Shown piece by piece: positions 1 through 15,670 of a DNA stretch of 64,000 nt. Where the stretch lies: the sequence record DRR723986_4803; one strand, given 5' to 3'. Numbering within the stretch: the stretch's first letter is position 1; every line of letters starts with the position of its first letter. A program made the position numbers and the translations under genes. Below the pieces are notes generated by a model that had not been told where the DNA came from, did not search any database, and saw nothing but the letters and a program-made list of their open reading frames with translations.

Positions 1-478
1 CAACGCAGATCATCTGGTGGCATCGGCGGGCCGCGTATCGTTCCAGTCGCCGGAACGCTTCGCGGGACACAGCATTCTGGTATTCATGGAACGGTGCCCC
101 GTGAACCGTATGGATCACCGCAGGGACTTTGCACTTCCATGCAGCTAGACGTCCCAGGAATCCACCTTTCGCGCTGTGCGTGTGGACGACGTCTGGTTCA
201 AACTCTTTGATGCGATCAATCAGGCTGCGGTAGGCTTTCCAGTCGTCCAGTGGTCGAATGGCGCGTTGAAGGCTGGGGATTTCGTCAACGCGGAGCCCCC
301 CTGCCCTGCCCTGGCTAAGCAGCTTTCCTTCTGGTCCGGTCGTTGGCCCAGTAACAAGAACCACGTCATCGCCGTATTGATCACGCAAGTCCAGACAGTT
401 GTAGAGCGTGTTTTCCTGTGCACCACCGATGATCATTCGCGTGATGACATGCATGACTCGCAACCGCTGATGGCTCAT
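1..478 (-). CDS. Glycosyltransferase family 4 (GT-B) protein, N-terminal part; runs off the window start
   Basis: Not in the ORF track. Manual translation from ATG 478 (TGATG overlap with the truA stop) gives MSHQRLRVMHVITRMIIGGAQENTL...FEPDVVHTHSAKGGFLGRLAAW...VIHTVHG, which are typical GT4 N-terminal motifs. Confidence 0.88.
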   Translation of the reverse strand, partial: MSHQRLRVMHVITRMIIGGAQENTLYNCLDLRDQYGDDVVLVTGPTTGPEGKLLSQGRAGGLRVDEIPSLQRAIRPLDDWKAYRSLIDRIKEFEPDVVHTHSAKGGFLGRLAAWKCKVPAVIHTVHGAPFHEYQNAVSREAFRRLERYAARRCHQMICV

Positions 479-1332
479 CAGAACAAGACCTCCTGCAAGA
501 AGAGCCCTTGTGGCGGGGCGGCTGCACCGGCCACCTCGCGATCGCGGGCGGCCAAAATCTCGTCAATCCAAGCTGGGCTCTTGCGGCCAACTGAAATCTG
601 GATGAGCGTACCGACGATGTTACGCACCATGTTGTAAAGAAACCCGTCGGCTTCAATATCGAATTGATACATCGTTCCATCCATGTGCGGCCGCGAGGTC
701 ACATCGAGCGACCGGACATGGCGAACCGTACTGCTCCTGGGGCTTCCCACGGATTGGAAACTGTAGAAGTCGTGCTTCCCAACCACTCGTCTGGCAGCGT
801 CCAGCAAGAGGTCTTGGTTCACCAGTTGTTTCACCCACCAGTGCGTGCCAGCGCCAATTGGGTCAGCCTTCCGCGAGCAATAGGCAAAGTAGCGATAACG
901 TTTGCCATGGTTGTCGCGCAGTGGATTAAAGTCCAGGGGCACTTCGACAGCATCCCGACAAACCACATCGCTTGGCAAGTGGGTGTTCAGGGCTAGAGGG
1001 AGTCGATCCGCGGGCGCGTTCCATTTGCTCGTGCGGAACATGGCCGCTTGCCCCAGAGCATGCACCCCTGAATCCGTGCGGCTGCTCGAGTAAACTACAA
1101 TCGAATCGATCGAAAGCAAGCTAGCCACCGAATTTTCGACGGCCTCTTGAACGGTCGGCAGATTTAGCTGCCGCTGCCACCCGCAGTAGTTCGCTCCGTT
1201 GTAAGCGAGCGTTAGGCGAAATGCTCGTTCGCTACTTCCTGCGCCGCCTCTGCCTGCATTCTCACGCTCTGCATCTACGTCGGCTTCGACTTCTGGTGCT
1301 GAAACCGGAGCCTCTGATTCAGGCCTACTCAC
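478..1332 (-). CDS. truA: tRNA pseudouridine(38-40) synthase TruA
   Basis: LAYNGANYCGWQRQ, SRTDSGVHALGQ (catalytic Asp), FLYNMVRNIVG, APPQGLFL. Confidence 0.96.
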   Translation of the reverse strand: MSRPESEAPVSAPEVEADVDAERENAGRGGAGSSERAFRLTLAYNGANYCGWQRQLNLPTVQEAVENSVASLLSIDSIVVYSSSRTDSGVHALGQAAMFRTSKWNAPADRLPLALNTHLPSDVVCRDAVEVPLDFNPLRDNHGKRYRYFAYCSRKADPIGAGTHWWVKQLVNQDLLLDAARRVVGKHDFYSFQSVGSPRSSTVRHVRSLDVTSRPHMDGTMYQFDIEADGFLYNMVRNIVGTLIQISVGRKSPAWIDEILAARDREVAGAAAPPQGLFLQEVLF

Positions 1333-2345
1333 TTTGCAGCCACAGAACTTTCAGCCAGCAGCTTGCCAATCTGCACCGCGTTTGTCGCCGCACCTTTTCG
1401 CAAGTTGTCACTTACGCACCAGAAGCTAATGCCGGTTGGAACGTTCAGGTCACGACGCACCCGACCCACAAACACATCGGGCTTGTCCGCCGAATTGCGA
1501 GGCATAGGGTACGATTGGCTACTAAGGTCATCTACCAAAGTAACCCCGTCCGCTTCGGCAAGAACTCGACGAATCTCTTCCAGTTCGAGTGGCGTTTCAG
1601 TCTCGCAGTAGATTGATTCGCTGTGCCCGATCAGAACCGGAACACGAACGCAGGTTGCATTGATCTCGATGGAATCGTCACCGAAGATTTTATGCGTCTC
1701 CCGAACCATTTTGATTTCTTCGGACGTGAAGCCAGCTTCCTTCTCTGAGCCGATCTGTGGGATCAGGTTCATTGCGATGTCATGCTGGAAGATCGATGCA
1801 CTCCCCTGCTCTCCCGCTAAGAGCTTTCGGGTGTTGCCAACGGTCTCCTCGTTTGCCGCTAGTCCGGCACCGCTGACGGCTTGGTAGGTGCTGACGATGA
1901 TGCGCTTCAGCCCAGCCGCCTTCTTTAGTGGGGCGAGTGCGACAACCATCTGAGTCGTACTGCAGTTGGGGCTGGCGATAATCCCCTTATGCTGCTTCAC
2001 TTCATCGCCATTGACTTCAGGGATGACCAGTGGCACGTCATCCTTCATTCGGTAAAAGGCGGATTCGTCAACAACGACCGCCCCACGCTCAACGGCCCAG
2101 GGAACAAACTCGGCGGCAACTTCATCGGGTGTGCTGGCGATGACGACATCGACACCGTCAAAGGCCTCGGCGGTGAGCAATTCGACTTCGTGCTGTTTGC
2201 CCTGAAACTCGATCTTGGAACCAGCCGAGCGAGCGGAGGCCAGCAGTTTGATATTCTGAAACGGCAGGCCTTGCTTGGTGATTTCGTCCAGCACAATGGT
2301 GCCGACCGCACCCGTAGCTCCGACAACAGCCAATGTATTGATCAC
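1329..2345 (-). CDS. asd: Aspartate-semialdehyde dehydrogenase
   Basis: VVGATGAVG, IASPNCST, CVRVPVLIGHSE, DNLRKGAATNAVQI. Start moved to GTG 2345, which follows a GAGGG Shine-Dalgarno. Confidence 0.97.
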   Translation of the reverse strand: MINTLAVVGATGAVGTIVLDEITKQGLPFQNIKLLASARSAGSKIEFQGKQHEVELLTAEAFDGVDVVIASTPDEVAAEFVPWAVERGAVVVDESAFYRMKDDVPLVIPEVNGDEVKQHKGIIASPNCSTTQMVVALAPLKKAAGLKRIIVSTYQAVSGAGLAANEETVGNTRKLLAGEQGSASIFQHDIAMNLIPQIGSEKEAGFTSEEIKMVRETHKIFGDDSIEINATCVRVPVLIGHSESIYCETETPLELEEIRRVLAEADGVTLVDDLSSQSYPMPRNSADKPDVFVGRVRRDLNVPTGISFWCVSDNLRKGAATNAVQIGKLLAESSVAAK

Positions 2346-2712
2346 GGTTGAATCCCTCTTCGGGCCCCTGGATTTTGGCCCACGCACGAACGTTATTTGT
2401 CACTTGAGCCGAACACCACCGTGGAAGCGGCCTTGGATCCCGAAAAATGAGAACATTCGAGAAAGTCGGCTGACTTGGAATACTAGCAGACAATGCCCAA
2501 AACGGAAGACATGACCTAGGTGCAAGCACCAAAGGCCGCCTGGATTTCGAGCTCAATTGCTCAGTCCGAGTGTGATCGCAGTCAGGAAAAACCGCCTCAA
2601 CGCTAAGCCCAGACACTGTTGTCGTCCGATTTGTTCGCCGCGTCGATGAAGTGAATCCGCAGCGGGCAAACGAAGAGACAGAGAGACAGCGCTAGCTCAA
2701 ACGAAGCATTTG

Positions 2713-2762: not shown

Positions 2763-3950
2763 CTAGCGGCTGAGGCTTTCCGGTGGAGTGGCTGCCAAGT
2801 TGAGCGGCGGTAGGTACATGTGCGTTTCGTCTTCAAATTCGTGCCCGCCAGCTCCGGGCGTCAAGAATACCTGAGGATCGACCTCTTGGAGTAGCTTCGG
2901 GTTGTGCCATTCAGTTGTCGCCTGCATGGCTTCGTCGACACCTTCGATTTCGGTCGATGCTCGAGAGTAGGAAACTCGATGCAACCAGAATGGAAAGGCG
3001 GCGTCGTTGGTTGCCACAACCGCTTCCACATTGGTTGGAATCAAAGTCGAGTGACTGTTGCCGAACATCTGCTCGTCCACCGGCGCAAGTCCGCGCACTG
3101 CTTGCGGCTCCAAAGCCAGAGTACCGAGCAGTCGCCACGCCGGTTGGCCTTCAGCGGTCGTTTCGGAAACACTGTGCCAAGTGAACTTCTGACACAGTGA
3201 ACGAAGGACTTCGCTTTGCCCTCCGATCGCACGATGCAGTAAGTCAACTTTGTTGTAGATCGTTCGGTTGTTCAAGCCATTTTGCGCAAGCCGCGATCGG
3301 ACCTGGCTAAGATCTACTTCTGAGTAGCGTCGGATGCCGTGAATTTCTTCCATCGTCAGCAGGCGCTGCCCATCGCCAACTTGCAGCAGTGAGTTGAGTT
3401 GTTCGCGTGAAGAGAATTGCAAAGAGTATCGCAGCAAACCAAGTCGCTTGCCTCCACGCAAGTAGTGCCCTACCCCGACCGATTTCTTGCCCGCGATGCT
3501 AATCGTTTGTCGTACGTCACTCTGCGCTGGCTGTTTTGCATAGACGCTTTCATGCAAGCAGCGGAACAGGATCGCAAAGGCTACATCACTTTGGCTCTCG
3601 TCTTTGCTGTCCGACGAAGAGCTGGCGCTGGTCTGTGCTGGAGAGCCAGCCGTCCGTGCAGCCGCGGGGGGGGAGAATCCAGCGTTTGCCGGCGCGTCTA
3701 TTGATGGCGCGCTTGCTAATGGAGTGTTCGTTGACAGCGGGCTACTCGATGGTGCGTTGTCGCCGAACGAAGGGTTCGATTCGCTAGCTGATATTTGCCC
3801 GCTGGCTGGTGCCGATGAAGCCACGAGTATTCCAGCCGCCAACGCTAGCAAAGCCAATGCAGGCAATTGCACCCAGGCATCAATCTGGCTTCGTCGGTGC
3901 CAGTAGCACCGATTGTTCTTGGCATTCGCGTTGGGCAATCTTCGCCACAT
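2763..3950 (-). CDS. Exported hypothetical protein, possibly LolA-like fold
   Basis: Hydrophobic signal segment, S/A/P-rich linker, then a beta-rich domain with LLQVGDGQRLL and a C-terminal EVDPQVFLTP, reminiscent of LolA-type carriers. Start uncertain. Confidence 0.6.
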   Translation of the reverse strand: MWRRLPNANAKNNRCYWHRRSQIDAWVQLPALALLALAAGILVASSAPASGQISASESNPSFGDNAPSSSPLSTNTPLASAPSIDAPANAGFSPPAAARTAGSPAQTSASSSSDSKDESQSDVAFAILFRCLHESVYAKQPAQSDVRQTISIAGKKSVGVGHYLRGGKRLGLLRYSLQFSSREQLNSLLQVGDGQRLLTMEEIHGIRRYSEVDLSQVRSRLAQNGLNNRTIYNKVDLLHRAIGGQSEVLRSLCQKFTWHSVSETTAEGQPAWRLLGTLALEPQAVRGLAPVDEQMFGNSHSTLIPTNVEAVVATNDAAFPFWLHRVSYSRASTEIEGVDEAMQATTEWHNPKLLQEVDPQVFLTPGAGGHEFEDETHMYLPPLNLAATPPESLSR

Positions 3951-4321
3951 AGTCCGGTTGTGCGGGATTTGTCAAAGAAAACAGTGATTCAACGCCGAAA
4001 GTAAAGGCACGGGGAATGTTCGCCCGGGTGCAATGCATGAATTTCAGCTTTCACGGCTGAACATCGAGCACTCACAGGCAGACGTTTTCCTACGAACCTG
4101 CGGCTGCTGTTAGCTCACCAAACAGGATTGTTGGCCTCAAACCGGCGATTCTAGGTGCAAGCTGGCAGACGCGTCCAGGCGAATTGGCGCACCCGTAACC
4201 TGCGCTGCGAACCATCTGCAGACTGCTGTCAGTGGCCGCGAATTAGACACTCACTCAGGATCGTTTCGAAAGCGACAGTACGCGACCTTTCCCAAGTACT
4301 GTCAACATTAGGGGGTTTAGC

Positions 4322-5494
4322 ATGAAAATGCGTGTTTTCCTTACGCTAGCCGTAGTAGCCGCAGGCTGCTTCACCGGCTGCACCACGGTGCGTCACAACA
4401 CGCCGCCTGCACAGCGACTTCTTGAACCAGGTCCGGGCGTTGGTGGCCCTGGACCAGGGGTTCTTGGACCTGGCGTAGCCGGGCCAGCCGCTGGCGTTGT
4501 ACCTGCTTCTGCGATGGGCGGCATGTCCGGCGGTTGCATGGACTGCGGTCCTGGTGGAGCGGTTACCGCTGGCGGCATGATGATGCCTGGAGCGGGAGCC
4601 AATGTACAAGTGCTGTTCAATCGTCCAGAGGGCATGCAGCTCTACTACGACGTCGTCGGAGATGGCTCCTTCGGTAGCGAACCACTTTATGTCCCCGGCC
4701 GACTTGAGTTCCCTCAAGGTGGCATCTACCGCATGAAGCTGACCAACATCCAAGGTCGCGAAGGCGTAGAGCTTTACCCAACTGTCGAAGTTGCCAACGG
4801 CAATCCTCGCACAGCGGCTTACCTAGCTCACAACGCGATTCCGGTTCAATTCACCGTTGATGACTTCGAACAAGTGCTTTCGGGCAACTTCGTCACCAAA
4901 GTGATTTACCTTCCCGATCCAGAATTCCAAGGCGATGCACTTGTAGGTGTTGACGTCCTGGTTAGCAACCGCCTCGAACCAGGCCTCGATCCAATCATCG
5001 AAGCCGACCGTCGCGGTTCAATCCTGGCAATCGTCCGCTTGGGTAACAAGGACGTAGAAATGTCCGGAGCTGGCATGGGCGGTGTCGCCGCGATGGCTGG
5101 CATGGGCATGATGTGTGGTCCTGACGGCTGTGGTCCTGGTGGAGTTCCCGCTTCACTTCCTGGTTACGTCGCCGGAGTTACCGCTCCTCAATACGGAATG
5201 ACAATGTCTGGAACGCCAATTGGTCTTCCAGGTCCACCACACATTCCACTCGGATCGCCAGCCGGTTTGAAGAAGCACACGATGCGCAACCGCACTCACA
5301 TGCACATGCCTGACCCTGTTCAGCACATGCGAGTCAACGTGCGTCAAACACCTGGCCAGAGCTACCCTGCTCCAGTCAACCGAGTTCGCATCCACGAACG
5401 CAACGTACACCCCGGTGTACCAATAGGAGCTCCAGGGCACGCACGCGGTAGCCAGAGCATCCCAGCTCAAGAAGCAGCCTACTGCCCAGAATAG
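4322..5494 (+). CDS. Hypothetical lipoprotein with Gly/Met/Cys-rich flanks; paralog of 5921..6769
   Basis: Lipobox-like AAGC/FTGC, AGGGGG Shine-Dalgarno, core domain shared with the next gene. Confidence 0.8.
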   Translation: MKMRVFLTLAVVAAGCFTGCTTVRHNTPPAQRLLEPGPGVGGPGPGVLGPGVAGPAAGVVPASAMGGMSGGCMDCGPGGAVTAGGMMMPGAGANVQVLFNRPEGMQLYYDVVGDGSFGSEPLYVPGRLEFPQGGIYRMKLTNIQGREGVELYPTVEVANGNPRTAAYLAHNAIPVQFTVDDFEQVLSGNFVTKVIYLPDPEFQGDALVGVDVLVSNRLEPGLDPIIEADRRGSILAIVRLGNKDVEMSGAGMGGVAAMAGMGMMCGPDGCGPGGVPASLPGYVAGVTAPQYGMTMSGTPIGLPGPPHIPLGSPAGLKKHTMRNRTHMHMPDPVQHMRVNVRQTPGQSYPAPVNRVRIHERNVHPGVPIGAPGHARGSQSIPAQEAAYCPE

Positions 5495-5726
5495 GCAGTT
5501 GGCGGGAAGACGAATCAGGCACCTATGCCTGACAAACAGTCCCAGCTCGGCTGACACGACGTTGGCCCAGCAGAACTGAACGATGACTAGCGTTTGCTCG
5601 CTAGAACCAGCAATCGAGCCAGCCAGCTCGATTGCCAAGACCGAGCTCAAGCAGGTGTTGCCGAAGAATTCGAGCGCTTCGACAGCAATCCTTGATGCTC
5701 TACCAAATGTTACGTGAATGAGTGAT

Positions 5727-5765
5727 GCGGTCGTGGACGACATTGGCCGTTCCGCGACCGCTTTT
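5727..5765 (+). terminator. Putative intrinsic terminator or stem-loop between the two paralogs
   Basis: GCGGTCGTGGA (5727-5737) pairs with TCCGCGACCGC (5751-5761), followed by TTTTATT. Confidence 0.5.
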
Positions 5766-5920
5766 ATTCATTTCGATTTGGTTGGCAATTCCCTGGCGAT
5801 CAGACACTTCGCCGCACCTCACATCGACCACAAGTCTCCCGGGCGACCACAGGCCACTGTGCGAACCGCAGGCTTTGGGCCGACAACTAGGCGACTGCCA
5901 CGTAGACTGGATCCAGAGCG

Positions 5921-6769
5921 ATGTTTAAAACTTTGAGACCAAGTCAAACGACACACTCCGTAGTGCGGTCGCTGCTCCCAGTCATATTATTGACCGCCCT
6001 GCCCTGCTCCGCAGTTCTCGGGCAGAAGCGCAGTCTCAACCCAAACGTAAACTACCTACTCGACGCCAACGGCCCGCCGGGCTACGTCGCCAGTGCTCAA
6101 GCAGCACGAAGCATGCCCGGTGTCGGCACCTTTCAGCCCGTCGCTATCAACGGCCCCAAGGGCCTGAAGGTCGCGCTCGCACGTGACGGCTTCTTCCTAG
6201 ACAATATCGATGCACCGGTAACCACCGCCATGATGGTCGGCGCAACGTACCGGTTCCGTATTGCAAACATTCCATTCAAACCCGGTGTTGAGCTCTTTCC
6301 AACGGTGGAAATCATCGACCGATTGCATGCTCCAGCGGGCCGCGAACACCGCTTCCCTATCCCGGTTGAGATCACCCGAGATGACGTGGAACTGGCCATG
6401 CGAGGAGCCTTGGTGACTCGAGTCATCTACCTCGAAGACAGCGAACTCGCTTCACCGGTCAGCTACCCAGCCGGACAACGTCCTTCGGTTACGGTCGCAG
6501 CAAACGAGAACGCTCTTCAACGAGCCGATCAAATGGGACGGCCAGTCGCGATCCTACGACTGGGGTCCAAGGTTCCATCGGCCGGAGCTTTTGACATGAA
6601 CGGTTTCCTGTACGGCTGTCCGCCTTGGTCTCCGTTGGCTCCCGTCCCGACCCGGCAACAATTGGTTCAAGAGAACGGTTGGCCAGAAATTGCACCGGTT
6701 GTTCCTGCCGAGAAGATTTACAACGAAACGCCGGCTGCCGATGAGCCGCGTGCGACCGAGTCCTGGTAA
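5921..6769 (+). CDS. Exported hypothetical protein; paralog of 4322..5494
   Basis: Signal peptide. YRFRIANIPFKPGVELFPTVEI...IPVEITRDDVELAMRGALVTRVIYLED...ADQMGRPVAILRLGSK aligns by eye with the upstream gene. Confidence 0.8.
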   Translation: MFKTLRPSQTTHSVVRSLLPVILLTALPCSAVLGQKRSLNPNVNYLLDANGPPGYVASAQAARSMPGVGTFQPVAINGPKGLKVALARDGFFLDNIDAPVTTAMMVGATYRFRIANIPFKPGVELFPTVEIIDRLHAPAGREHRFPIPVEITRDDVELAMRGALVTRVIYLEDSELASPVSYPAGQRPSVTVAANENALQRADQMGRPVAILRLGSKVPSAGAFDMNGFLYGCPPWSPLAPVPTRQQLVQENGWPEIAPVVPAEKIYNETPAADEPRATESW

Positions 6770-6867
6770 GTAGCCACGCCAAGTTTTTCCAAACGATGCA
6801 GTTTCAATGTAGGTGGAGCAATGCCGCCTGCCTCCGGACTCAGCAAGTGCCAAGAAACAACAGACTC

Positions 6868-8184
6868 ATGGCAGATAAAGCCAAGGCGAAAACGATGCGA
6901 GCAATTGCAAAACAATCAGCGGACACCACACGCTATGCTTTGGTGGCTCTCGCCCTAGTCGCAGGCACTTCCGTCGGTTGCTCGACGCTCGGGGGGCGAA
7001 ATGCAAATCAAGCGTCAAGCTTAGCCGCTCGACATCAATCGCAGGCATCGCAGCAGCCGGAATTCCCGATGCCACCGCAGACTCCGCAACAAACCGCTCA
7101 AGCCTCCGCGCCGCAGAGTGGTGTTGTCACTGCCAGCTTTGGACAACGTGTCGGTGGGCAGCGAAACGGTGGTCATGCAATGGCATGCCAGTCGTGTCGG
7201 ACGAGTGATGCTGCCTGTTCCACTGGAAGCTGTAGTTGTGGAACTGATACCGGCTGTGCACCTAGCCCAGCACCACGACGCGATGCACAGGAATACATTT
7301 TTGATGGCGGCGATCAACAACCCGTAGTCATCGTGAAAGAAGATTGGACAGAAGCTGGTTTGGACCCAACCGATACGGTCGCCTACTACGAGACCGATGG
7401 TGGGCAGGTGTGCGCCAAACCCAGCAACCGCGTGCCGATCTACGCACCGCGTTTTGGCACGGTACGACAGATTCGCGGCTTGCACTCATCGGAGCTAGCA
7501 GTCGGTACTGAACGAGTCTTTGCACCGCTGTCGCCGATCCCGTTGGAAGAGTCCTTGCTTGTATCCAACCTAGCTCAACCACTTGCACCCCATGGAGAAG
7601 CTCAAGTCAATCAACTTGACGCGTTTCAGGAGAACCAAGGTGGCGTGCCTCTCGAAAAGACAGTCGGTTGGCGAATCATGGCCGACGCCGAAGTGCCTCA
7701 CGAGATGGTCGATTGGTACCGACTGGAAGTCTTCCGCGATGTAGAGCTGCTTGCGATCGGACGTATTCTGCAAGGATCGCGCGAATGGTACTCACCCGAG
7801 TCACTGGGGGTGATGATCAAGGGCGAGAATATTGCACAGACTCGCGAAGCCAAGTTTGCAAAAGAAGTTTACTTGTACGAGGCAGAGGACAAGTGCTCGT
7901 TGCGAATTGTCAAAGCCGCATCGCACACGATTGCTGACTCCGGCGATACGATTCGTTTCACGATTCGGTTTGACAATATTGGTCCAAGGCCGGTTCACAA
8001 GGCGGTCATTCTCGACAACCTTTCACCACGTCTCGAGTACATCGCTGGCAGCCAGCAATGCACCCTCGACGCAGGATTCGAAGAAACGCCCAACGATGTT
8101 GGATCAAGCAAGCTGAAGTGGGCCATTGATGAGATTCCATCCATGACCGGCGGCGTCATCAGCTTCGATTGCATCGTTCGCTAG
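6868..8184 (+). CDS. Cys-rich lipoprotein with C-terminal DUF11 domain
   Basis: Lipobox SVGC, Cys cluster CQSC...CSTGSCSC...C, C-terminal LRIVKAASHTIADSGDTIRFTIRFDNIG...ILDNLSPRLEYIAGS (DUF11 pattern). Start could be 6868 or 6895. Confidence 0.8.
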   Translation: MADKAKAKTMRAIAKQSADTTRYALVALALVAGTSVGCSTLGGRNANQASSLAARHQSQASQQPEFPMPPQTPQQTAQASAPQSGVVTASFGQRVGGQRNGGHAMACQSCRTSDAACSTGSCSCGTDTGCAPSPAPRRDAQEYIFDGGDQQPVVIVKEDWTEAGLDPTDTVAYYETDGGQVCAKPSNRVPIYAPRFGTVRQIRGLHSSELAVGTERVFAPLSPIPLEESLLVSNLAQPLAPHGEAQVNQLDAFQENQGGVPLEKTVGWRIMADAEVPHEMVDWYRLEVFRDVELLAIGRILQGSREWYSPESLGVMIKGENIAQTREAKFAKEVYLYEAEDKCSLRIVKAASHTIADSGDTIRFTIRFDNIGPRPVHKAVILDNLSPRLEYIAGSQQCTLDAGFEETPNDVGSSKLKWAIDEIPSMTGGVISFDCIVR

Positions 8185-8282: not shown

Positions 8283-8759
8283 CTATTTACTCGACAAAGC
8301 AAAATCGATCGTGTTTTCGGTTTCGGCTACTGTCTCAAGAAGCGTCGTCTTCGCGTTGTACTTCGCTGGAATGTCTGCCTTCTTTTTACGTTCCGCTTTC
8401 GCGTAATCGCTAGCTGGACCGCCTGAAGCCATTGCTTCGTAGGCAGCGCTATCAGAGCTCTGGTAGGCTTCCTCCTCTTCAGAACTGGCATTGTCCACGA
8501 CGGTTACACGAGTAATTGAGACCCTGTAGCTTCCAGACGGTACGCCTTTCCCTTTAATGCAGGTAAGCTCGTACTTTCCGTTAGCGTCTGTCGTGGCCGT
8601 TGCAGTGATTCCACCCTCGGCTTCAGGTGCAAACGCCACCAACAAACCTTCTTGTGGCTTATCATCCAGTGTGACCGTGCCGCTCACAGGGTAGAGAGCA
8701 ACGCCTCCGCATCCGGTCAAGGCTGTTAAACATAGTCCCATCAACAAAATGACTTTCAT
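8283..8759 (-). CDS. Small lipoprotein with carboxypeptidase-regulatory-like (Ig/transthyretin-like) domain; typical DUF1559 partner
   Basis: MKVILLMGLCLTALTGCGG lipobox, PVSGTVTLDDKP, ATTDANGKYEL, IPAKYN...NTIDFAL. GAGGTG Shine-Dalgarno before ATG 8759. Confidence 0.85.
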   Translation of the reverse strand: MKVILLMGLCLTALTGCGGVALYPVSGTVTLDDKPQEGLLVAFAPEAEGGITATATTDANGKYELTCIKGKGVPSGSYRVSITRVTVVDNASSEEEEAYQSSDSAAYEAMASGGPASDYAKAERKKKADIPAKYNAKTTLLETVAETENTIDFALSSK

Positions 8760-8802
8760 CAACCCACCTCTAAAGTTCAGTGTGAATGTACTAGTTGAGA
8801 TC

Positions 8803-8836
8803 AAAAAAAACAGCCTAGCATACAATGCTAGGCTGT
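8803..8836 (-). terminator. Rho-independent terminator after the DUF1559 gene
   Basis: Perfect 12-bp stem ACAGCCTAGCAT/ATGCTAGGCTGT (8810-8836) followed on the minus strand by a T run. Confidence 0.88.
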
Positions 8837-8860: not shown

Positions 8861-9961
8861 TTACTGTTCAATGCTGACAGCTTCACCGCCAGAAGCACTT
8901 CCGAGTGAACCCCAAACACCGTAATCGGATGGCCCCGCTGGATTTGCAAGACTGTTAGCGAGCTGATTACCAGTGTCGATGCTCTGCGAAATGAATTGAA
9001 CCGATCCGTCTGCCATTCCGACTTGGACTCCGCCGGTGTGGTAACTCGATGCGGCTCCCATGTCTTCGTTGCCATCCACACCGCCCCAGTGACACGAGGG
9101 ACCGTTCGGAGCAACCATAGTAGCGAAGCCTACAAAATAAGGTCGCCCGTCCCAAGCACGACCACCCGTAGGCCGGAATTGTGCCCGCACATCCCCTGTG
9201 AGTCGTCGAGGATTGGTTGGGTCAAGTCGAGCCAGGCAAGCGGCTGGATTCCAGTCTCGCATGTTTAACGCGACGCCACCAAGAACATCACGTGCATCAC
9301 CACCGGCGACTCGCTCACTAATCGCGATGGTATTGGACGTACCGTCGGTGATACCTCCGATGCTAAGCCAACGGTTGCGTTGAAAGATACCACGATTCGA
9401 CCTGTTTCCACCCCATTGCGGTGTAAAATGGTTTTGATGGTAATCATCACCAACACACACCTTGTAGTTCAAAAGGCATGGGCTTTCAGCAAGGTTTGTT
9501 GGTGGTGGGTCAGAAGGGCAAACGAATGTTGCAATACTTACCTGCCAATTCAGAGCAGCCCACGCGCGTTCCTCGTCGTTCGCGAAGTGACCGGGACTGT
9601 TTGCCCATGGGCTTGGCAAACCGGGGCCCGATGGACGAGCAAATGCTTGATGAGCGTTGTACAGATTACCTTGCTCAATAAACGGCAGAATCTGCATGGT
9701 ATAACTGAATGGAAAATTACCACGGCCAATACCTGGTGCGCCATTTACTCCGACGTAGCCTAGCGCTGGGAAACGCTTGTACGCAGACTCATAGTTGTGC
9801 ATCGACAAACTTATTTGTTTGACGTTGTTAGAGCACTGCATTCTCCTCGCTGCCTCACGCGCAGCTTGGACTGCTGGCAAGAGTAGTCCAACGAGTATGC
9901 CAATTATGGCAATGACCACCAACAACTCGACCAGTGTAAACCCAGTCATTCTTCGCTTCAT
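8861..9961 (-). CDS. DUF1559 family prepilin-type (N-methylation) protein with H-X9-DG motif
   Basis: G|FTLVELLVVIAIIGILVGLLLPAVQAAREAARRMQCSNN; HTGGVQVGMADGSV. Confidence 0.95.
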   Translation of the reverse strand: MKRRMTGFTLVELLVVIAIIGILVGLLLPAVQAAREAARRMQCSNNVKQISLSMHNYESAYKRFPALGYVGVNGAPGIGRGNFPFSYTMQILPFIEQGNLYNAHQAFARPSGPGLPSPWANSPGHFANDEERAWAALNWQVSIATFVCPSDPPPTNLAESPCLLNYKVCVGDDYHQNHFTPQWGGNRSNRGIFQRNRWLSIGGITDGTSNTIAISERVAGGDARDVLGGVALNMRDWNPAACLARLDPTNPRRLTGDVRAQFRPTGGRAWDGRPYFVGFATMVAPNGPSCHWGGVDGNEDMGAASSYHTGGVQVGMADGSVQFISQSIDTGNQLANSLANPAGPSDYGVWGSLGSASGGEAVSIEQ

Positions 9962-10828: not shown

Positions 10829-12529
10829 TCAATCAGCAGTAATCTTTGCTCCAGTTCCGCGCTGAAGCGTAGAGCGGCTATTCTTCAGTGTTGAAAATGA
10901 CTCCTGAACGCCGTCGGGCCATGTTATCTCAATATTGATTTTCTCTGGTGCGTTACTTACTCCAAAGTGAAGCCGTGTGCCCCAGTAACTTTGGTAGCCG
11001 CGCCCGCTTACTAGCCAACGCGTTTGCGAACCATCAGAGATTTGCACCCTAGCTCCTATTGCAAATCTGTTCATGCCCGCCTGGCGTGGTTCCAACTGAA
11101 TCCAATCACCGCCGTTCAGTTCATTTCGAATCAACGATGGAGGCTCTCCAGAATCGACGATCAAGATATCGAGATCACCGTCGTTATCAAAATCTTCACA
11201 CGCAATTCCGCGGCTTGATGCTATCTTGTTCAAACCGTCTCCGGCTTGAATCGCAACATCCTTAAATCCGTCCGGTGTATTTCTAAGGACGTAATTCTTG
11301 AGTTTTTTCGTCGTTCGATCATCGATTTGTTCAACACGATCGAAGTGGCCACACGCTACGAAGAGGTCCTCCATTCTATCGTGGTCGAAATCAGCGAATG
11401 CGGTGCCCCAGCTAACATGTGGAAAGAGCTGGTTTGGTATTCGGGCCGTTGACGTCGCATCTTCAAAGAGGCCGCCCGAAAGATTCCGATAAAGAACTGG
11501 CATCTCGCCTTGGTAGTTTGTCACGAAAAGATCCGGTAGCCCATCGCGATCAAAGTCTCCAATATCGACCCCCATGCTTGAATTCGCCTTGCCGGCAAAA
11601 TCGTAGGCCAACCCGGAAAGTATGCCGGTTTCCGAAAAGAGTCCAGTGCCGTCGTTTTCGAACAGAAAGTTTGGTTGTCCATCATTGCAAACGTATACGT
11701 CGCAGTCTGAGTCCCCGTCAAAGTCTGCGCAGATTAAACCCATGCCCGGACCGGCGATCGAACCGATGCCAGCACGTGAACTTACGTCGGTGAACTGGCC
11801 GTCGCCGTCATTTCGATAGAGAGTGTCAGGAACTGGCTGGTAATACTGCGGCCCCGCTTGAAAACGGATCCCCTTTATGACGATGGGAACATGGTTTTCG
11901 AAATTGAAGTCTACGTAGTTCGCGACATAGAGATCGAGATCGTTGTCCCCGTCCATATCGAAGAATCCAACACCGGCTCCAACTTTGTTGCCGTTGCCGA
12001 CTCCGGCTTGTGTTGTCACGTCCTCGAATGTTCGATTCCCCTTATTTCGATAGAGCTTGTTTTCTCCAAAGTTGTTGACATACAAGTCTAAGTTGCCATC
12101 GCCGTCGTAGTCAGCAACACCAACACCTAGAGAATAGCCAGTGTCACCAACACCTGCTTCTTCGGTGACGTCAACAAACTTCCAGTTGCCCAGGTTCCTG
12201 TAAAGGCGATTTGACGTGGCAGGACCATCGTTTCCTTCGAGCGGGCTGCCGTTGAGAAAGTAGATGTCGATGTTGCCGTCGTTGTCGTAATCGAATGTCG
12301 CCACACCGGCCGACATGCCTTCAACGATGTATTCCATTCCACTTCCACCAGTCGTGTGGACGAAGTCGATGCCGCTTGAATTGACCACTTCAGTGAATTT
12401 GATTTGTCGGTTGCTGGAGCCATCGTCTTCGGCGTGGCTTTGCCCGTTCCCTACAAGAATGGGAGGCAGCATTCCGAAAAAGAATGCCAGGTGGCGAGTG
12501 GACCACGCAATTCGTTCTTGATAGTTCAT
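10829..12529 (-). CDS. CRTAC1-family FG-GAP beta-propeller with ASPIC/UnbV C-terminus
   Basis: Repeated DxDxDGxxDI/L motifs; C-terminal SGRGYQSYWGTRLHFG; signal peptide. Confidence 0.92.
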   Translation of the reverse strand: MNYQERIAWSTRHLAFFFGMLPPILVGNGQSHAEDDGSSNRQIKFTEVVNSSGIDFVHTTGGSGMEYIVEGMSAGVATFDYDNDGNIDIYFLNGSPLEGNDGPATSNRLYRNLGNWKFVDVTEEAGVGDTGYSLGVGVADYDGDGNLDLYVNNFGENKLYRNKGNRTFEDVTTQAGVGNGNKVGAGVGFFDMDGDNDLDLYVANYVDFNFENHVPIVIKGIRFQAGPQYYQPVPDTLYRNDGDGQFTDVSSRAGIGSIAGPGMGLICADFDGDSDCDVYVCNDGQPNFLFENDGTGLFSETGILSGLAYDFAGKANSSMGVDIGDFDRDGLPDLFVTNYQGEMPVLYRNLSGGLFEDATSTARIPNQLFPHVSWGTAFADFDHDRMEDLFVACGHFDRVEQIDDRTTKKLKNYVLRNTPDGFKDVAIQAGDGLNKIASSRGIACEDFDNDGDLDILIVDSGEPPSLIRNELNGGDWIQLEPRQAGMNRFAIGARVQISDGSQTRWLVSGRGYQSYWGTRLHFGVSNAPEKINIEITWPDGVQESFSTLKNSRSTLQRGTGAKITAD

Positions 12530-12572: not shown

Positions 12573-13952
12573 TTACTTCATTTTGCTTGCTTCATTATCA
12601 GCCCTTAGTGCATCTTTCTCACGTCCGGCCAGTCGAAACACTCGCGCCAGTAATCGAAAACCTTGGCCACTTGGCTTTAGACGCACTGCCCGCTCGGCGT
12701 ACCATATGGCTTTCTCTGGTTCGCCGACCTCTGAGAGAAAGTCTGCCATCGCAGCGTATCCAGTTACCGTCATTGGCGACATGCTGATTGCCTGCTTGAT
12801 TGCTGCTTCTGCTTCGGCATGCAACTCTGCGGCAGATGCTGTTTTGGCCAACCTTAGGTAGTGCATCAAATTGAGAGGTGCGATTTGCTTCAGTCGCCTG
12901 CGAATCACAAGCTCGTTGTGAAGCCGACCGCTACGTTGATACAAGGTCCCAAGACTCAGGCATGCGTTTTCATTCTTCGGGTCCAGGGCGAGCACTCGCA
13001 GGAGCAAGTGTTCCGCCGCGACAACTCTTCCACGTTCGCTGTAGAGTTCGGCGGCTTCACGCAGAGTCGCTATGCAGACTCGTCGAGCTTCCGCCTCGGA
13101 AAGAACACTGTAGCGTTCACTAGTTGACAGTTTGGTCTCCTGAAACCCTTGGTAAAGTTCTAAGGCTTGTTGAGCTTCATCTTGCTTGCGATTCCTGATC
13201 AATGCGTTGAACAGTGCAAAGTAGCAAGCTTTGTTGTGGACGCCCAGTTCCACGGCGTTGGAAAGGCTTTGTTCCGCTTCGACTGACTTTCCAAGCTTCA
13301 GTTGGGCTTGGCCAAGGATAAACCATAACGGTCCGTTTTCCGGCGAGCTCTTAAGGGTCGATTGGGCAATCTCGACGGCACGCTCCGCATCTCCCGCAGC
13401 AACCAAAGCGATTCCCAAATGATGGGCAAGATCTTCCCCATTCATACCTTGCTGACGGGCTTGATCAAGTGTTTCCACCGCGAGGGATGCGTCTCCGCGA
13501 TCCAAGGCTATAGCTGCCAGATTGACGTAGTATTCGCTTTGCTTTGGGCTGAGTTCAATACAACGTGTCCAAAGTTCCAGCGCCTTGCCCGAATTGTGAA
13601 TCTGCGCTTGAAGGAGCGCGGCGACGTGCAAGCTTCTTGCATCATCCGGAAATGCGTCTAGGAGCTCGTTTACCGTAAACTCAGCCTCAGCTTCCAACGC
13701 ATCCTTGCTTGCTGGGCTTGCCGCGACAGGCAAGAGGATGGTCGCGAGGGACGAAGTTGTTGCGACAGGACGCTCTGGGCGGGCGTCCTGTCCTGCAGTT
13801 TTTTCGATGGCGATATCTGCGTCGGCCGTTGATTCTGCACCACGCAAGGTAGTTTGTTGTCGGATGCTAAGCAAATACCCAGTATACCCTAAGCAAGAAA
13901 CGAGCATGACAATGATCGCTACGCTCAAGAGTGTTCCAATTGTCTTGGTCAT
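12573..13952 (-). CDS. Membrane-anchored tetratricopeptide repeat protein
   Basis: N-terminal TM helix and many TPR-like repeats. ATG 13952 overlaps the upstream stop (ATGA). Confidence 0.85.
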   Translation of the reverse strand: MTKTIGTLLSVAIIVMLVSCLGYTGYLLSIRQQTTLRGAESTADADIAIEKTAGQDARPERPVATTSSLATILLPVAASPASKDALEAEAEFTVNELLDAFPDDARSLHVAALLQAQIHNSGKALELWTRCIELSPKQSEYYVNLAAIALDRGDASLAVETLDQARQQGMNGEDLAHHLGIALVAAGDAERAVEIAQSTLKSSPENGPLWFILGQAQLKLGKSVEAEQSLSNAVELGVHNKACYFALFNALIRNRKQDEAQQALELYQGFQETKLSTSERYSVLSEAEARRVCIATLREAAELYSERGRVVAAEHLLLRVLALDPKNENACLSLGTLYQRSGRLHNELVIRRRLKQIAPLNLMHYLRLAKTASAAELHAEAEAAIKQAISMSPMTVTGYAAMADFLSEVGEPEKAIWYAERAVRLKPSGQGFRLLARVFRLAGREKDALRADNEASKMK

Positions 13953-15670
13953 GGTTTCTCCTCGCCGCTTCCTTGCACAATCACAACTTCGCGATTCACA
14001 CTGAACACCTCTGTGTGCTGGAGATCTCCTGTACCCCAATCAACGACAATTAGAGCCGACGCGTTGGCAGTTTCGGCGTCGCTTCTTAGGGGAATGCCAA
14101 AATGCAAAACGTTGCCATAGTGGCTTTGGTAGCCGCGTCCGGCGTGTACTTCTGCAACTTGCTCTGCACCCGCGAACCGCAACGTCACTCTTGCGCCTAT
14201 TCCTTGCCGATTTGCTGTTTGCCCGACAAGTCGCACCGTTAACCAGGAGCTGTCGACGTCAGTTGCGTTGGCAAGTAAGGTTGGAGCGGCGTTGGCGTTC
14301 TGTACGACGATGTCGACTAGCCCATCGCCGTTGAGGTCGTCAAACGCTGCTCCTCTACTACTTTGAATCGGGGCCGATACCATATTCGAATCGATGGTAG
14401 CAAACTTTCCGTTGCCATTGTTCTCAAGCAAAAAGTCCTTAACTTTCACGGACGTCGAGTCGTCAATATGGTGGATGTTGTCCATGAAATGACCACACGC
14501 TATGTAGAGATCACGGTCACCATCGTTGTCAAAATCTGCAGCACCCACGCCCCAATTGACATGTGCGAAGAGCGAAGTGTCGACTCTCGAGCGATTCGAT
14601 TCGTCGGTGAAAATGCCAGTGCCCGAGTTACGATAGACTACAGGCATCTCTTGCTGGTAGGTTGTCGAAATAATGTCGATCAGGCCATCATTGTCGATGT
14701 CGCTACAGTCGACTCCCATATTGCCGTTGGTCTTGCCATGACGATCGTAAGCCAAGCCGCTAAGCAAGCCTTCTTCCGTGAACAATCCTGTACCGTCATT
14801 AATCAGGGCAAAATTGGGAAAGCTGTCGTTGGCAACAAACAGGTCGACGTCCCTGTCCCCGTCTATGTCGGTCGCGATTACTCCCATGCCTGTGCCAAGG
14901 TTTTCGTCTAGGCCACATATCCTAGACACATCATCGTACGTACCATCGCCATTATTGCGAAACAGATTGTCAGTCGCAGGAGGGTAGTCTCTCGGCCCGG
15001 GGTGGAATTGATGTCCACCAATCATGCGAACTTTGTGCTCACTCAGTGAGAATTCTTGATAGTTCGCACAGTAAAGGTCCAAATCGCCGTCGGTATCCAT
15101 ATCGAAGAAGACAGCGCCAGCCCCGAATCGGTCGCCGGCTGCGACCCCAATACACTTCGCCGCTTCGGTAAATGTGCCATCGCCGTTGTTGACATAGAAA
15201 ACGTTGGGGCCATAGTTGGTGACGTAGATATCTTCATCACCATCGTTGTCGAAATCCGCGGCGGTGACACCGAGACCGAATCCAGGGTCACCCACGCCAG
15301 CAAGAGATGTAACGTCCTGAAACCGGAGACCGTCCAAGTTTCTGTATAGTTTATTCTCTAGCGCACTCTCATTTGAGGCTTGAGTGGATAGCCTTCTTCC
15401 GTTCACAAAATAGATGTCTTTGAGACCGTCACCATCAAAGTCGAGTGTGGCTATACCCCCAGTCATCGCTTCGACAACGAAACGATCTCCAGATCCTCCA
15501 TCAGAATGGACAAAGTCGATGCCAGAAGAATTACTTCGATCAACAAAATGGATCGGTGAACTGCTCTGGGGCAATTCTTGTCCACAAGCCGCGTTCAAGA
15601 TGATCAACAGGAGTGGCATGGCATTGCCCGCCCCCTGGCAATATTTTCTCGCAAGAACAAGTGCTGTCAT
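13949..15670 (-). CDS. CRTAC1-family FG-GAP beta-propeller with ASPIC/UnbV C-terminus
   Basis: DFDGDG/DFDNDG repeats; AGRGYQSHYGNVLHFG; ATGA coupling at both ends. Confidence 0.92.
   Translation of the reverse strand: MTALVLARKYCQGAGNAMPLLLIILNAACGQELPQSSSPIHFVDRSNSSGIDFVHSDGGSGDRFVVEAMTGGIATLDFDGDGLKDIYFVNGRRLSTQASNESALENKLYRNLDGLRFQDVTSLAGVGDPGFGLGVTAADFDNDGDEDIYVTNYGPNVFYVNNGDGTFTEAAKCIGVAAGDRFGAGAVFFDMDTDGDLDLYCANYQEFSLSEHKVRMIGGHQFHPGPRDYPPATDNLFRNNGDGTYDDVSRICGLDENLGTGMGVIATDIDGDRDVDLFVANDSFPNFALINDGTGLFTEEGLLSGLAYDRHGKTNGNMGVDCSDIDNDGLIDIISTTYQQEMPVVYRNSGTGIFTDESNRSRVDTSLFAHVNWGVGAADFDNDGDRDLYIACGHFMDNIHHIDDSTSVKVKDFLLENNGNGKFATIDSNMVSAPIQSSRGAAFDDLNGDGLVDIVVQNANAAPTLLANATDVDSSWLTVRLVGQTANRQGIGARVTLRFAGAEQVAEVHAGRGYQSHYGNVLHFGIPLRSDAETANASALIVVDWGTGDLQHTEVFSVNREVVIVQGSGEEKP

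Follow-up and report, generated by a model that had tools for sequence, protein, structure and literature searches.

In a 64,000-nucleotide stretch of sequence record DRR723986_4803 (hereafter, the window), four neighbouring genes, which we call g0 to g3, form a module of exported proteins that is class-wide in Planctomycetia and present once per genome. Three of them, g1 (4322..5494), g2 (5921..6769) and g3 (6796..8184), are co-directional on the plus strand, and g0 (2763..3950, minus strand) lies upstream and is divergently transcribed. The module fits no described system, and the core domain shared by the products of g1 and g2 is itself undescribed. We give an even chance to the explanation that the four proteins cooperate in the periplasm or in the region of the outer membrane, as tethered binding or scaffold proteins and not as a disulfide polymer. 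A previous interpretation of this DNA, made from the letters alone (the sequence-only reading), had placed open reading frames at the positions of g1, g2 and g3, all of which are present, and had described them as an uncharacterised three-gene envelope module. The genes are indeed syntenic, exported and uncharacterised, but the unit is larger, as the conserved divergent gene g0 had been overlooked.

Export or lipoprotein signals had also been claimed for all three plus-strand genes, and they can be recognised in each case (signal peptides and lipoboxes were judged by reading the sequence, not with a prediction program). The g1 product (390 amino acids) is a lipoprotein with a lipobox-type ..TGC motif at Cys20, kept in 23 of 27 homologs, and the g2 product (282 amino acids) is a secreted protein whose type I signal is a hydrophobic N-terminal stretch closed by a conserved A-x-A-Q (Q35 does not vary among 31 sequences). 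The g3 frame codes for 462 amino acids; judging from its alignment with homologs, translation most likely starts at its Met34 (nucleotide 6895) or, alternatively, at Met25 (nucleotide 6868), upstream of a ..SVGC lipobox whose Cys62 (nucleotide 6979) is kept in 28 of 29 homologs. The g0 product (395 amino acids) is exported as well. No Pfam or NCBIfam family matches g0, g1 or g2. At E <= 0.001, g1 has more than 4503 relatives and g2 has 1325, all of them without a name, and the scoring of 8000 candidates gave 412 relatives of g3. The literature covered, which did not include subscription-only papers, yielded no account of the four genes.

Synteny, distribution and gene fusion

The order of the genes is strictly conserved in relatives. 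The sample comprised one genome per species and 80 loci, the best 80 of 325 confirmed relatives; in all 72 loci with room for it, g2 comes after g1 on the same strand, and g3 comes after g2 in all 63 with room. When the flanking open reading frames of the 80 loci were clustered, the g0 family was found upstream and divergent in 68 of them and was the sole further conserved gene. None is conserved downstream of g3, and the neighbourhood of the module has no conserved gene for regulation, metal resistance or transport. In four loci, the conservation of g1 (71-79% identity) equals that of the housekeeping gene asd (71-77%). In the window, asd lies together with truA beyond g0 (478..2387, minus strand), an arrangement that is also present in the closest relatives (L001, L002, L003 and L005).

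The core domain occurs exactly twice, in adjacent genes, in the four complete genomes. Among genomes with a completeness of at least 90%, the core profile matches 199 of 201 from the order and 199 of 201 from the class Planctomycetia, mostly with exactly two matches per genome, which makes the module class-wide and rules it out as an order-specific signature. In a sample of the whole phylum, which is evidently stratified and whose positive genomes recur in the class sample, the profile matches 26 of 401 genomes. In all five distant class genomes examined, the two core copies are adjacent. Two records deserve a separate mention. In a 16.5-Mb genome (G765, contig 10, 2608722..2609181), the second core copy extends over two short frames of 207 and 144 amino acids, and may reflect a frameshift or a broken gene. 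Additionally, a contig filed under a Nitrosopumilus (archaeal) metagenome-assembled genome (L045) carries a full planctomycete module, with a g1 identity of 56%; its placement is probably a binning error in the record.

In many genomes, g2 and g3 constitute a single polypeptide. Fusion proteins of about 650 amino acids, in which a g2-like N-terminal half precedes a g3-like C-terminal half, appear as three cluster representatives, and the second gene is fused in this manner in three of four distant class genomes. For instance, in genome G633, g1 is followed by one frame of 620 amino acids spanning g2 and g3, which has the signal peptide and core of g2 together with the “EYIFDGGD” block and the DUF11 domain of g3, and is devoid of the g3 lipobox and Cys cluster. 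With a fused protein as query, one uninterrupted g2-g3 frame is found in at least 32 of the 201 class genomes, and long frames matching the first two-thirds of the query are found in twelve more. The fusion is absent from the 67 close loci and occurs in one of the 201 genomes of the order. As the two proteins are a single polypeptide in so many genomes, they very probably function as one working unit. For the same reason, g3 would not be a separate anchor of a polymer but the other half of g2.

A terminator-like hairpin (5724..5764, plus strand) followed by a T-run (5762..5768), of which the sequence-only reading made no mention, lies about 230 nucleotides past the g1 stop codon. A 76-nucleotide segment containing it folds at -32.4 kcal/mol, and comparable hairpins (dG <= -12 kcal/mol) are present in 51 of 76 g1-g2 spacers, as compared with 26% of 380 shuffles. 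In an alignment of nine close sequences, the hairpin has 14 pairs, three of them changed on both sides. A simple terminator scan missed it because of its long loop, and Rfam gave zero matches (E <= 1) between window positions 2500 and 8600. The conservation of this hairpin and T-run suggests that g1 is probably a transcription unit apart from g2-g3. On the other side of g1, the divergent intergenic region (3951..4321) presumably holds the promoters of both g0 and g1; the one sigma-70-like site observed there is weak, lies on the minus strand and is not above shuffle expectation.

A shared beta-sandwich domain

That g1 and g2 are paralogs, as originally claimed, is clear from a similarity far beyond chance. 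The two proteins share 33% identity over 170 residues in BLASTP (E 4e-18), and their family profiles align in hhalign over 152 columns with 99.4% probability (E 4.9e-21). The common region, defined by the profile comparison and a core alignment, corresponds to residues 95-245 of g1 (4604..5056) and residues 66-218 of g2 (6116..6574), with near-invariant positions (in g1 numbering) at P102, F117, R137, E156, G188, T192, V194, A228, G232 and A236. The possibility that g3 contains the same core was ruled out (hhalign probabilities of 0.3% and 2.8%).

The AlphaFold2 (AF2) model of g2 has a predicted local distance difference test score (pLDDT) of 69 overall and of about 90 in the core, which is modelled as a beta-sandwich of about 150 residues. 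Its fold is that of no known enzyme, and no known family can be assigned to it, in agreement with the earlier judgement that the shared domain belongs to no named family. Foldseek of the g2 model against the PDB gave zero matches at E <= 0.001, and in a wide structural search the best matches of the core were 3qdh (FimA, Z 5.0), 8bdw (CnaB2, Z 4.9) and 2z0b (CBM20, Z 4.7), with transthyretin-like domains also among these low, tied scores. An ESM Atlas search with g1 retrieved only planctomycete clusters without names. In searches by sequence against solved structures, nothing was found for g1 or g0, and only chance-level rows were found for g3.

An exhaustive profile search with the core recovered 1990 representatives at E <= 0.001, and in some of them the domain is part of larger extracytoplasmic architectures. 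In these bacteria, it follows the single transmembrane helix in a Ser/Thr kinase and is located in the C-terminal region of two BlaR1-type M56 proteins; in a further protein, it lies behind a signal peptide, flanked by a caspase domain and an FGE-sulfatase domain. There are also large proteins (1021-1316 amino acids) in which between two and four g1-type cores stand in tandem after a long array of TPR repeats. Because kinases and M56 sensors use the domain in their periplasmic portion, it resembles a binding module and not a fibre subunit; on these grounds, it looks like an extracytoplasmic binding or spacer module. Proteins with TPR repeats and tandem cores were observed in L081 (1744..5694, minus strand), P0363, P0369, P0399 and P0445, the first of them with no evident signal peptide at the listed start. 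A further protein (P0415, 622 amino acids) combines a secretin N-domain (residues 251-312) with the core (residues 468-617), a combination that may point to a connection with secretion or pilus machinery.

The tree of 45 core domains is split, with a support of 100/99, into a g1-type and a g2-type clade. The former unites the cores of 15 g1 proteins with those of the four distant first genes and with all seven multidomain copies, and the latter unites the cores of 15 g2 proteins with those of all four distant second genes. Distant and fused copies are placed with the type to which they would be expected to belong. Since both clades include distant genomes, the duplication is older than the split of the sampled lineages. 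The g1-type core evolves much more slowly than the g2-type core.

Cysteines and the third gene

In addition to the paralogy and the export signals, the sequence-only reading had proposed that a major subunit (g1), a minor subunit (g2) and an anchor (g3) would be cross-linked into an envelope layer or fibre resembling that of OmcB. We consider this very unlikely, and a disulfide-linked structure is not supported by the pattern of Cys residues, by a co-variation test or by the fusion described above. It is true that all three proteins are exported and that most homologs contain Cys. A terminator after g1 would also permit an excess of g1, g3 combines conserved Cys positions with a DUF11 domain, and the beta-sandwiches resemble, at low Z, domains of pilins and adhesins. 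The distribution of the Cys residues along the proteins, however, lends the model no support.

From its N-terminus, g1 is composed of an invariant Gly/Pro motif, a Gly/Met-rich linker, the core, a second Gly/Met-rich linker, a Pro/His-rich C-block (residues 280-360, 5159..5401) that is strongly conserved within the order, and a tail ending in YCPE (5477..5491). In an alignment of 27 homologs, the mean identity with the window protein is 90% for the N-terminal motif, 82% for the core and 76% for the C-block, and only 32% and 50% for the first and second linkers. The linkers contain 27-28% Gly, with 11.5% and 14.1% Met as compared with 1.2% in the core; the C-block contains 16.8% Pro and 6.3% His, with some invariant His positions, and has no Cys. 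The Cys clusters of g1, which are present as quoted in the original proposal, lie in the variable linkers. At least one Cys is found in the first linker of 24 homologs and in the tail of 22, with the Cys of a “YCPP(E/Q)”-type C-terminus in 21, and two or more are found in the first linker of 17 and in the second linker of 13. The core and the C-block have essentially none. Thus, the clusters exist but those of g1 are not conserved, and among those claimed only the three g3 cluster positions discussed below are.

The single Cys of g2, in a conserved LYGCPPW motif of its tail (6605..6625), is kept in 25 of 31 homologs and is replaced by Ser in several genomes that keep the C-terminal Cys of g1. 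The motif resembles the tail of g1, and an intermolecular disulfide between the two was considered as a candidate; no co-variation between the two Cys was observed (the g2 motif was recovered in a minority of loci), and the candidate was discarded.

As regards g3, its C-terminal DUF11 domain, which had been recognised from the sequence, was confirmed by PF01345 (25.1 bits against a cut-off of 24.6, E 2.4e-5, residues 369-424) and TIGR01451 (36.5 bits against a cut-off of 24). It is one stretch, not a repeat array, and Pfam detects no DUF11 in g1 or g2. In the AF2 model, residues 365-462 (7888..8181) are all-beta with a pLDDT of about 90 and form an Ig-like beta-sandwich. In VIA-align, this domain reaches Z 7-8.4 with Ig-like sandwiches of adhesins and pilins, including the CLIPPER adhesin domain 9ifr (Z 7.8, 18% identity). 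Between the lipobox and the DUF11 domain, a variable linker ends in a Cys cluster (residues 131-154, 7186..7257) and is followed by the “EYIFDGGD...NRVPIYAPRFG.VR” block (residues 166-228, 7291..7479), which has invariant alignment columns, is modelled with moderate confidence (up to about 87) and is retained in the fused proteins. Within the cluster, C131, C146 and C154 are kept in 28, 26 and 27 of 29 homologs, respectively, and the remaining Cys are variable. Together with C206, C367 and C459, they amount to six conserved non-lipid Cys in a protein with 2.8% Cys, an even number that is consistent with internal disulfides. The fused form of G633 lacks the cluster.

Chlamydial OmcB is a cysteine-rich outer-membrane complex protein with DUF11 repeats, from the PVC group. 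The likeness that had been drawn to it holds insofar as g3 is exported and contains DUF11 and conserved Cys, but g3 has a single DUF11 stretch and lacks the N-terminal domain of OmcB, no chlamydial outer membrane protein family matches g1, g2 or g3 in Pfam at E <= 1, and OmcB offers no counterpart of g1 or g2.

Beyond g3, the window contains, on the minus strand, a small lipoprotein (8283..8825) that weakly resembles CarboxypepD_reg (26.5 bits, below the cut-off) and, adjoining it, a protein with DUF1559 and an N-methylation motif (8861..9961); the pair is not conserved together with the module. Two paralogous secreted proteins of about 570 amino acids, with FG-GAP_3 repeats and a UnbV_ASPIC domain, are found further on (10829..12529 and 13949..15670, both on the minus strand), and a TPR protein (12573..14039) sits between them.

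Role of the module and its place among envelope systems

In the explanation that we favour, g1 and g2 would each present one core beta-sandwich, the former as a lipoprotein and the latter as a soluble secreted protein. Where g2 and g3 are separate, as in the window, they would most likely form a non-covalent complex in which the lipid-anchored g3 holds g2. Both g1 and g2/g3 would be tethered to a membrane and serve as scaffolds or binding proteins; their flexible Gly/Pro/Met-rich tethers may let the beta-sandwiches reach a common component of the envelope, be it a glycan, the wall or a partner protein. As for g0, probably a half-barrel of the LolA/LolB type, it would keep the acyl chains of the two lipoproteins, g1 and g3, shielded during delivery to their membrane.

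The LolA/LolB-like character of g0 is possible. The protein is exported, its conserved pattern is reminiscent of LolA-type proteins and its gene adjoins two lipoprotein genes, and its language-model matches lean towards DUF2092 (24 of 30), with DUF1571, MucB_RseB and LolA among the rest (score 0.91, only 128 shared features). Canonical LolA was not found in any of the four complete relatives, which makes a divergent carrier plausible. Homologs of LolCE-like permeases are present in all four, in every case below the curated cut-off, and in two genomes (G001 and G456) the DUF2092 matches are located elsewhere than g0. LolA/LolB likeness, in any case, would cover only one of the four genes of the module.

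Several observations weigh against the explanation that we favour, most of them concerning g0. Its profile alignment with DUF2092 is co-linear but weak (hhalign, 37% probability, E 3.5e-4, 148 columns), and a relationship with DUF1571 was rejected (0.3%). No hidden Markov model of the LolA clan (LolA, LolB, DUF1571, DUF2092 or MucB_RseB) matches g0 or any of its 24 aligned homologs, and DUF1571 proteins, which are alternative LolA-like carriers, were found in 25 of 26 genomes from the order. A direct tblastn sees g0 in only 31 of 66 loci with room, and in the two distant fused-form genomes inspected g0 is apart from g1, which in both cases lacks the C-block. As to the core domain, its fold matches are weak and tied (Z <= 5), and its putative role as a binding module is suggested by the architectures in which it occurs. 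A stronger version of the carrier hypothesis, in which g0 is the missing periplasmic lipoprotein carrier and g1 and g2/g3 are its universally conserved clients, linking the outer membrane to the wall or another layer, is in our view unlikely. If true, it would mean a new envelope-organising system based on an undescribed domain, performing a basic task without the canonical parts.

Other roles can be envisaged for the same set of proteins. Lipid-anchored g1 and g3 could reside in the outer membrane and grip peptidoglycan through their beta-sandwiches or the C-block of g1, thus serving as the outer-membrane tether of Planctomycetia. The idea is attractive because, in the survey by Witwinowski et al. 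(10.1101/2021.05.31.446380), known outer-membrane tethering systems were not detected in Planctomycetes. The near-universal, single-copy presence of the module in the class and the asd-like conservation of g1 would suit such a function. Wall-binding modules of other bacteria, in addition, occupy positions on kinases and sensors comparable to those of the core on kinases and M56 proteins. We nevertheless regard a tether as quite unlikely, as Pfam and NCBIfam recognise no known peptidoglycan-binding domain in the proteins and, in particular, Pfam detects no OmpA-family match in g1-g3. The C-termini (..YCPE in g1, ..TESW in g2 and ..CIVR in g3) do not have the terminal Lys of Lpp-type proteins. 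OmpA-type peptidoglycan-binding domains, moreover, are encoded elsewhere in all four complete relatives (two or three per genome), so it is uncertain that there is a gap for a tether to fill.

The multidomain proteins suggest instead a sensory accessory role, in which g1 and g2/g3 would bind the ligand of the kinase and M56 sensors and act as co-receptors or ligand buffers in envelope signalling. The core belongs to the extracytoplasmic part of these proteins and of the caspase/FGE-sulfatase protein, and the seven multidomain copies derive from the g1 type. Such proteins, however, are sporadic, most genomes having exactly two core matches, no regulator gene is conserved beside the module, and the tandem arrays behind TPR repeats would fit a spacer or scaffold equally well; we assign this explanation the same low probability as the tether. 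Finally, g1 could bind metal ions such as copper in the periplasm through its flexible segments rich in Met, Cys and His, as might be expected from the Met content of the linkers, the His content and invariant His of the C-block, and the frequency of Cys in the linkers and tail. This is highly improbable: the linkers vary in sequence, the module has no conserved neighbour for metal resistance or transport, Pfam and NCBIfam return no known metal-binding family, and the module persists in distant orders in which the C-block of g1 is missing.

PASTA is an example of an extracytoplasmic binding module on bacterial Ser/Thr kinases, and the core is found in similar positions on a kinase (behind its single transmembrane helix) and on M56 proteins (in their C-terminal region); its fold and sequence are different, though, and it occurs mainly in the stand-alone g1 and g2 proteins, not in sensors. 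The Ig-like and CnaB domains of pilins and adhesins, CBM20 and transthyretin-like sandwiches are the nearest structural neighbours of the core, and the g3 DUF11 domain matches those of adhesins and pilins. The scores of the core, however, are tied at the level expected for a common arrangement, there is no sequence relation, and nothing points to assembly by sortases or ushers. The YTV proteins are rich in Cys and belong to the planctomycete cell wall (Hieu 2008 and Mahajan 2020, as cited in PMC8567305); as described in that source, they are like those of the module in being Cys-containing, exported, planctomycete-specific and wall-linked, but g1, g2 and g3 contain zero YTV motifs and have no YTV domain match in Pfam.

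The planctomycete envelope is poorly understood, and a four-gene module of exported proteins provides a concrete, testable entry point to it. The g2-g3 fusion indicates which proteins to co-purify, and the presence of the core on kinases and sensors suggests a shared ligand. With about 2000 representatives, the core family deserves a name in domain databases. Even if the module turned out to be a minor accessory of the envelope, its analysis would still leave a new domain family, and the architectures in which it occurs, cleanly defined.

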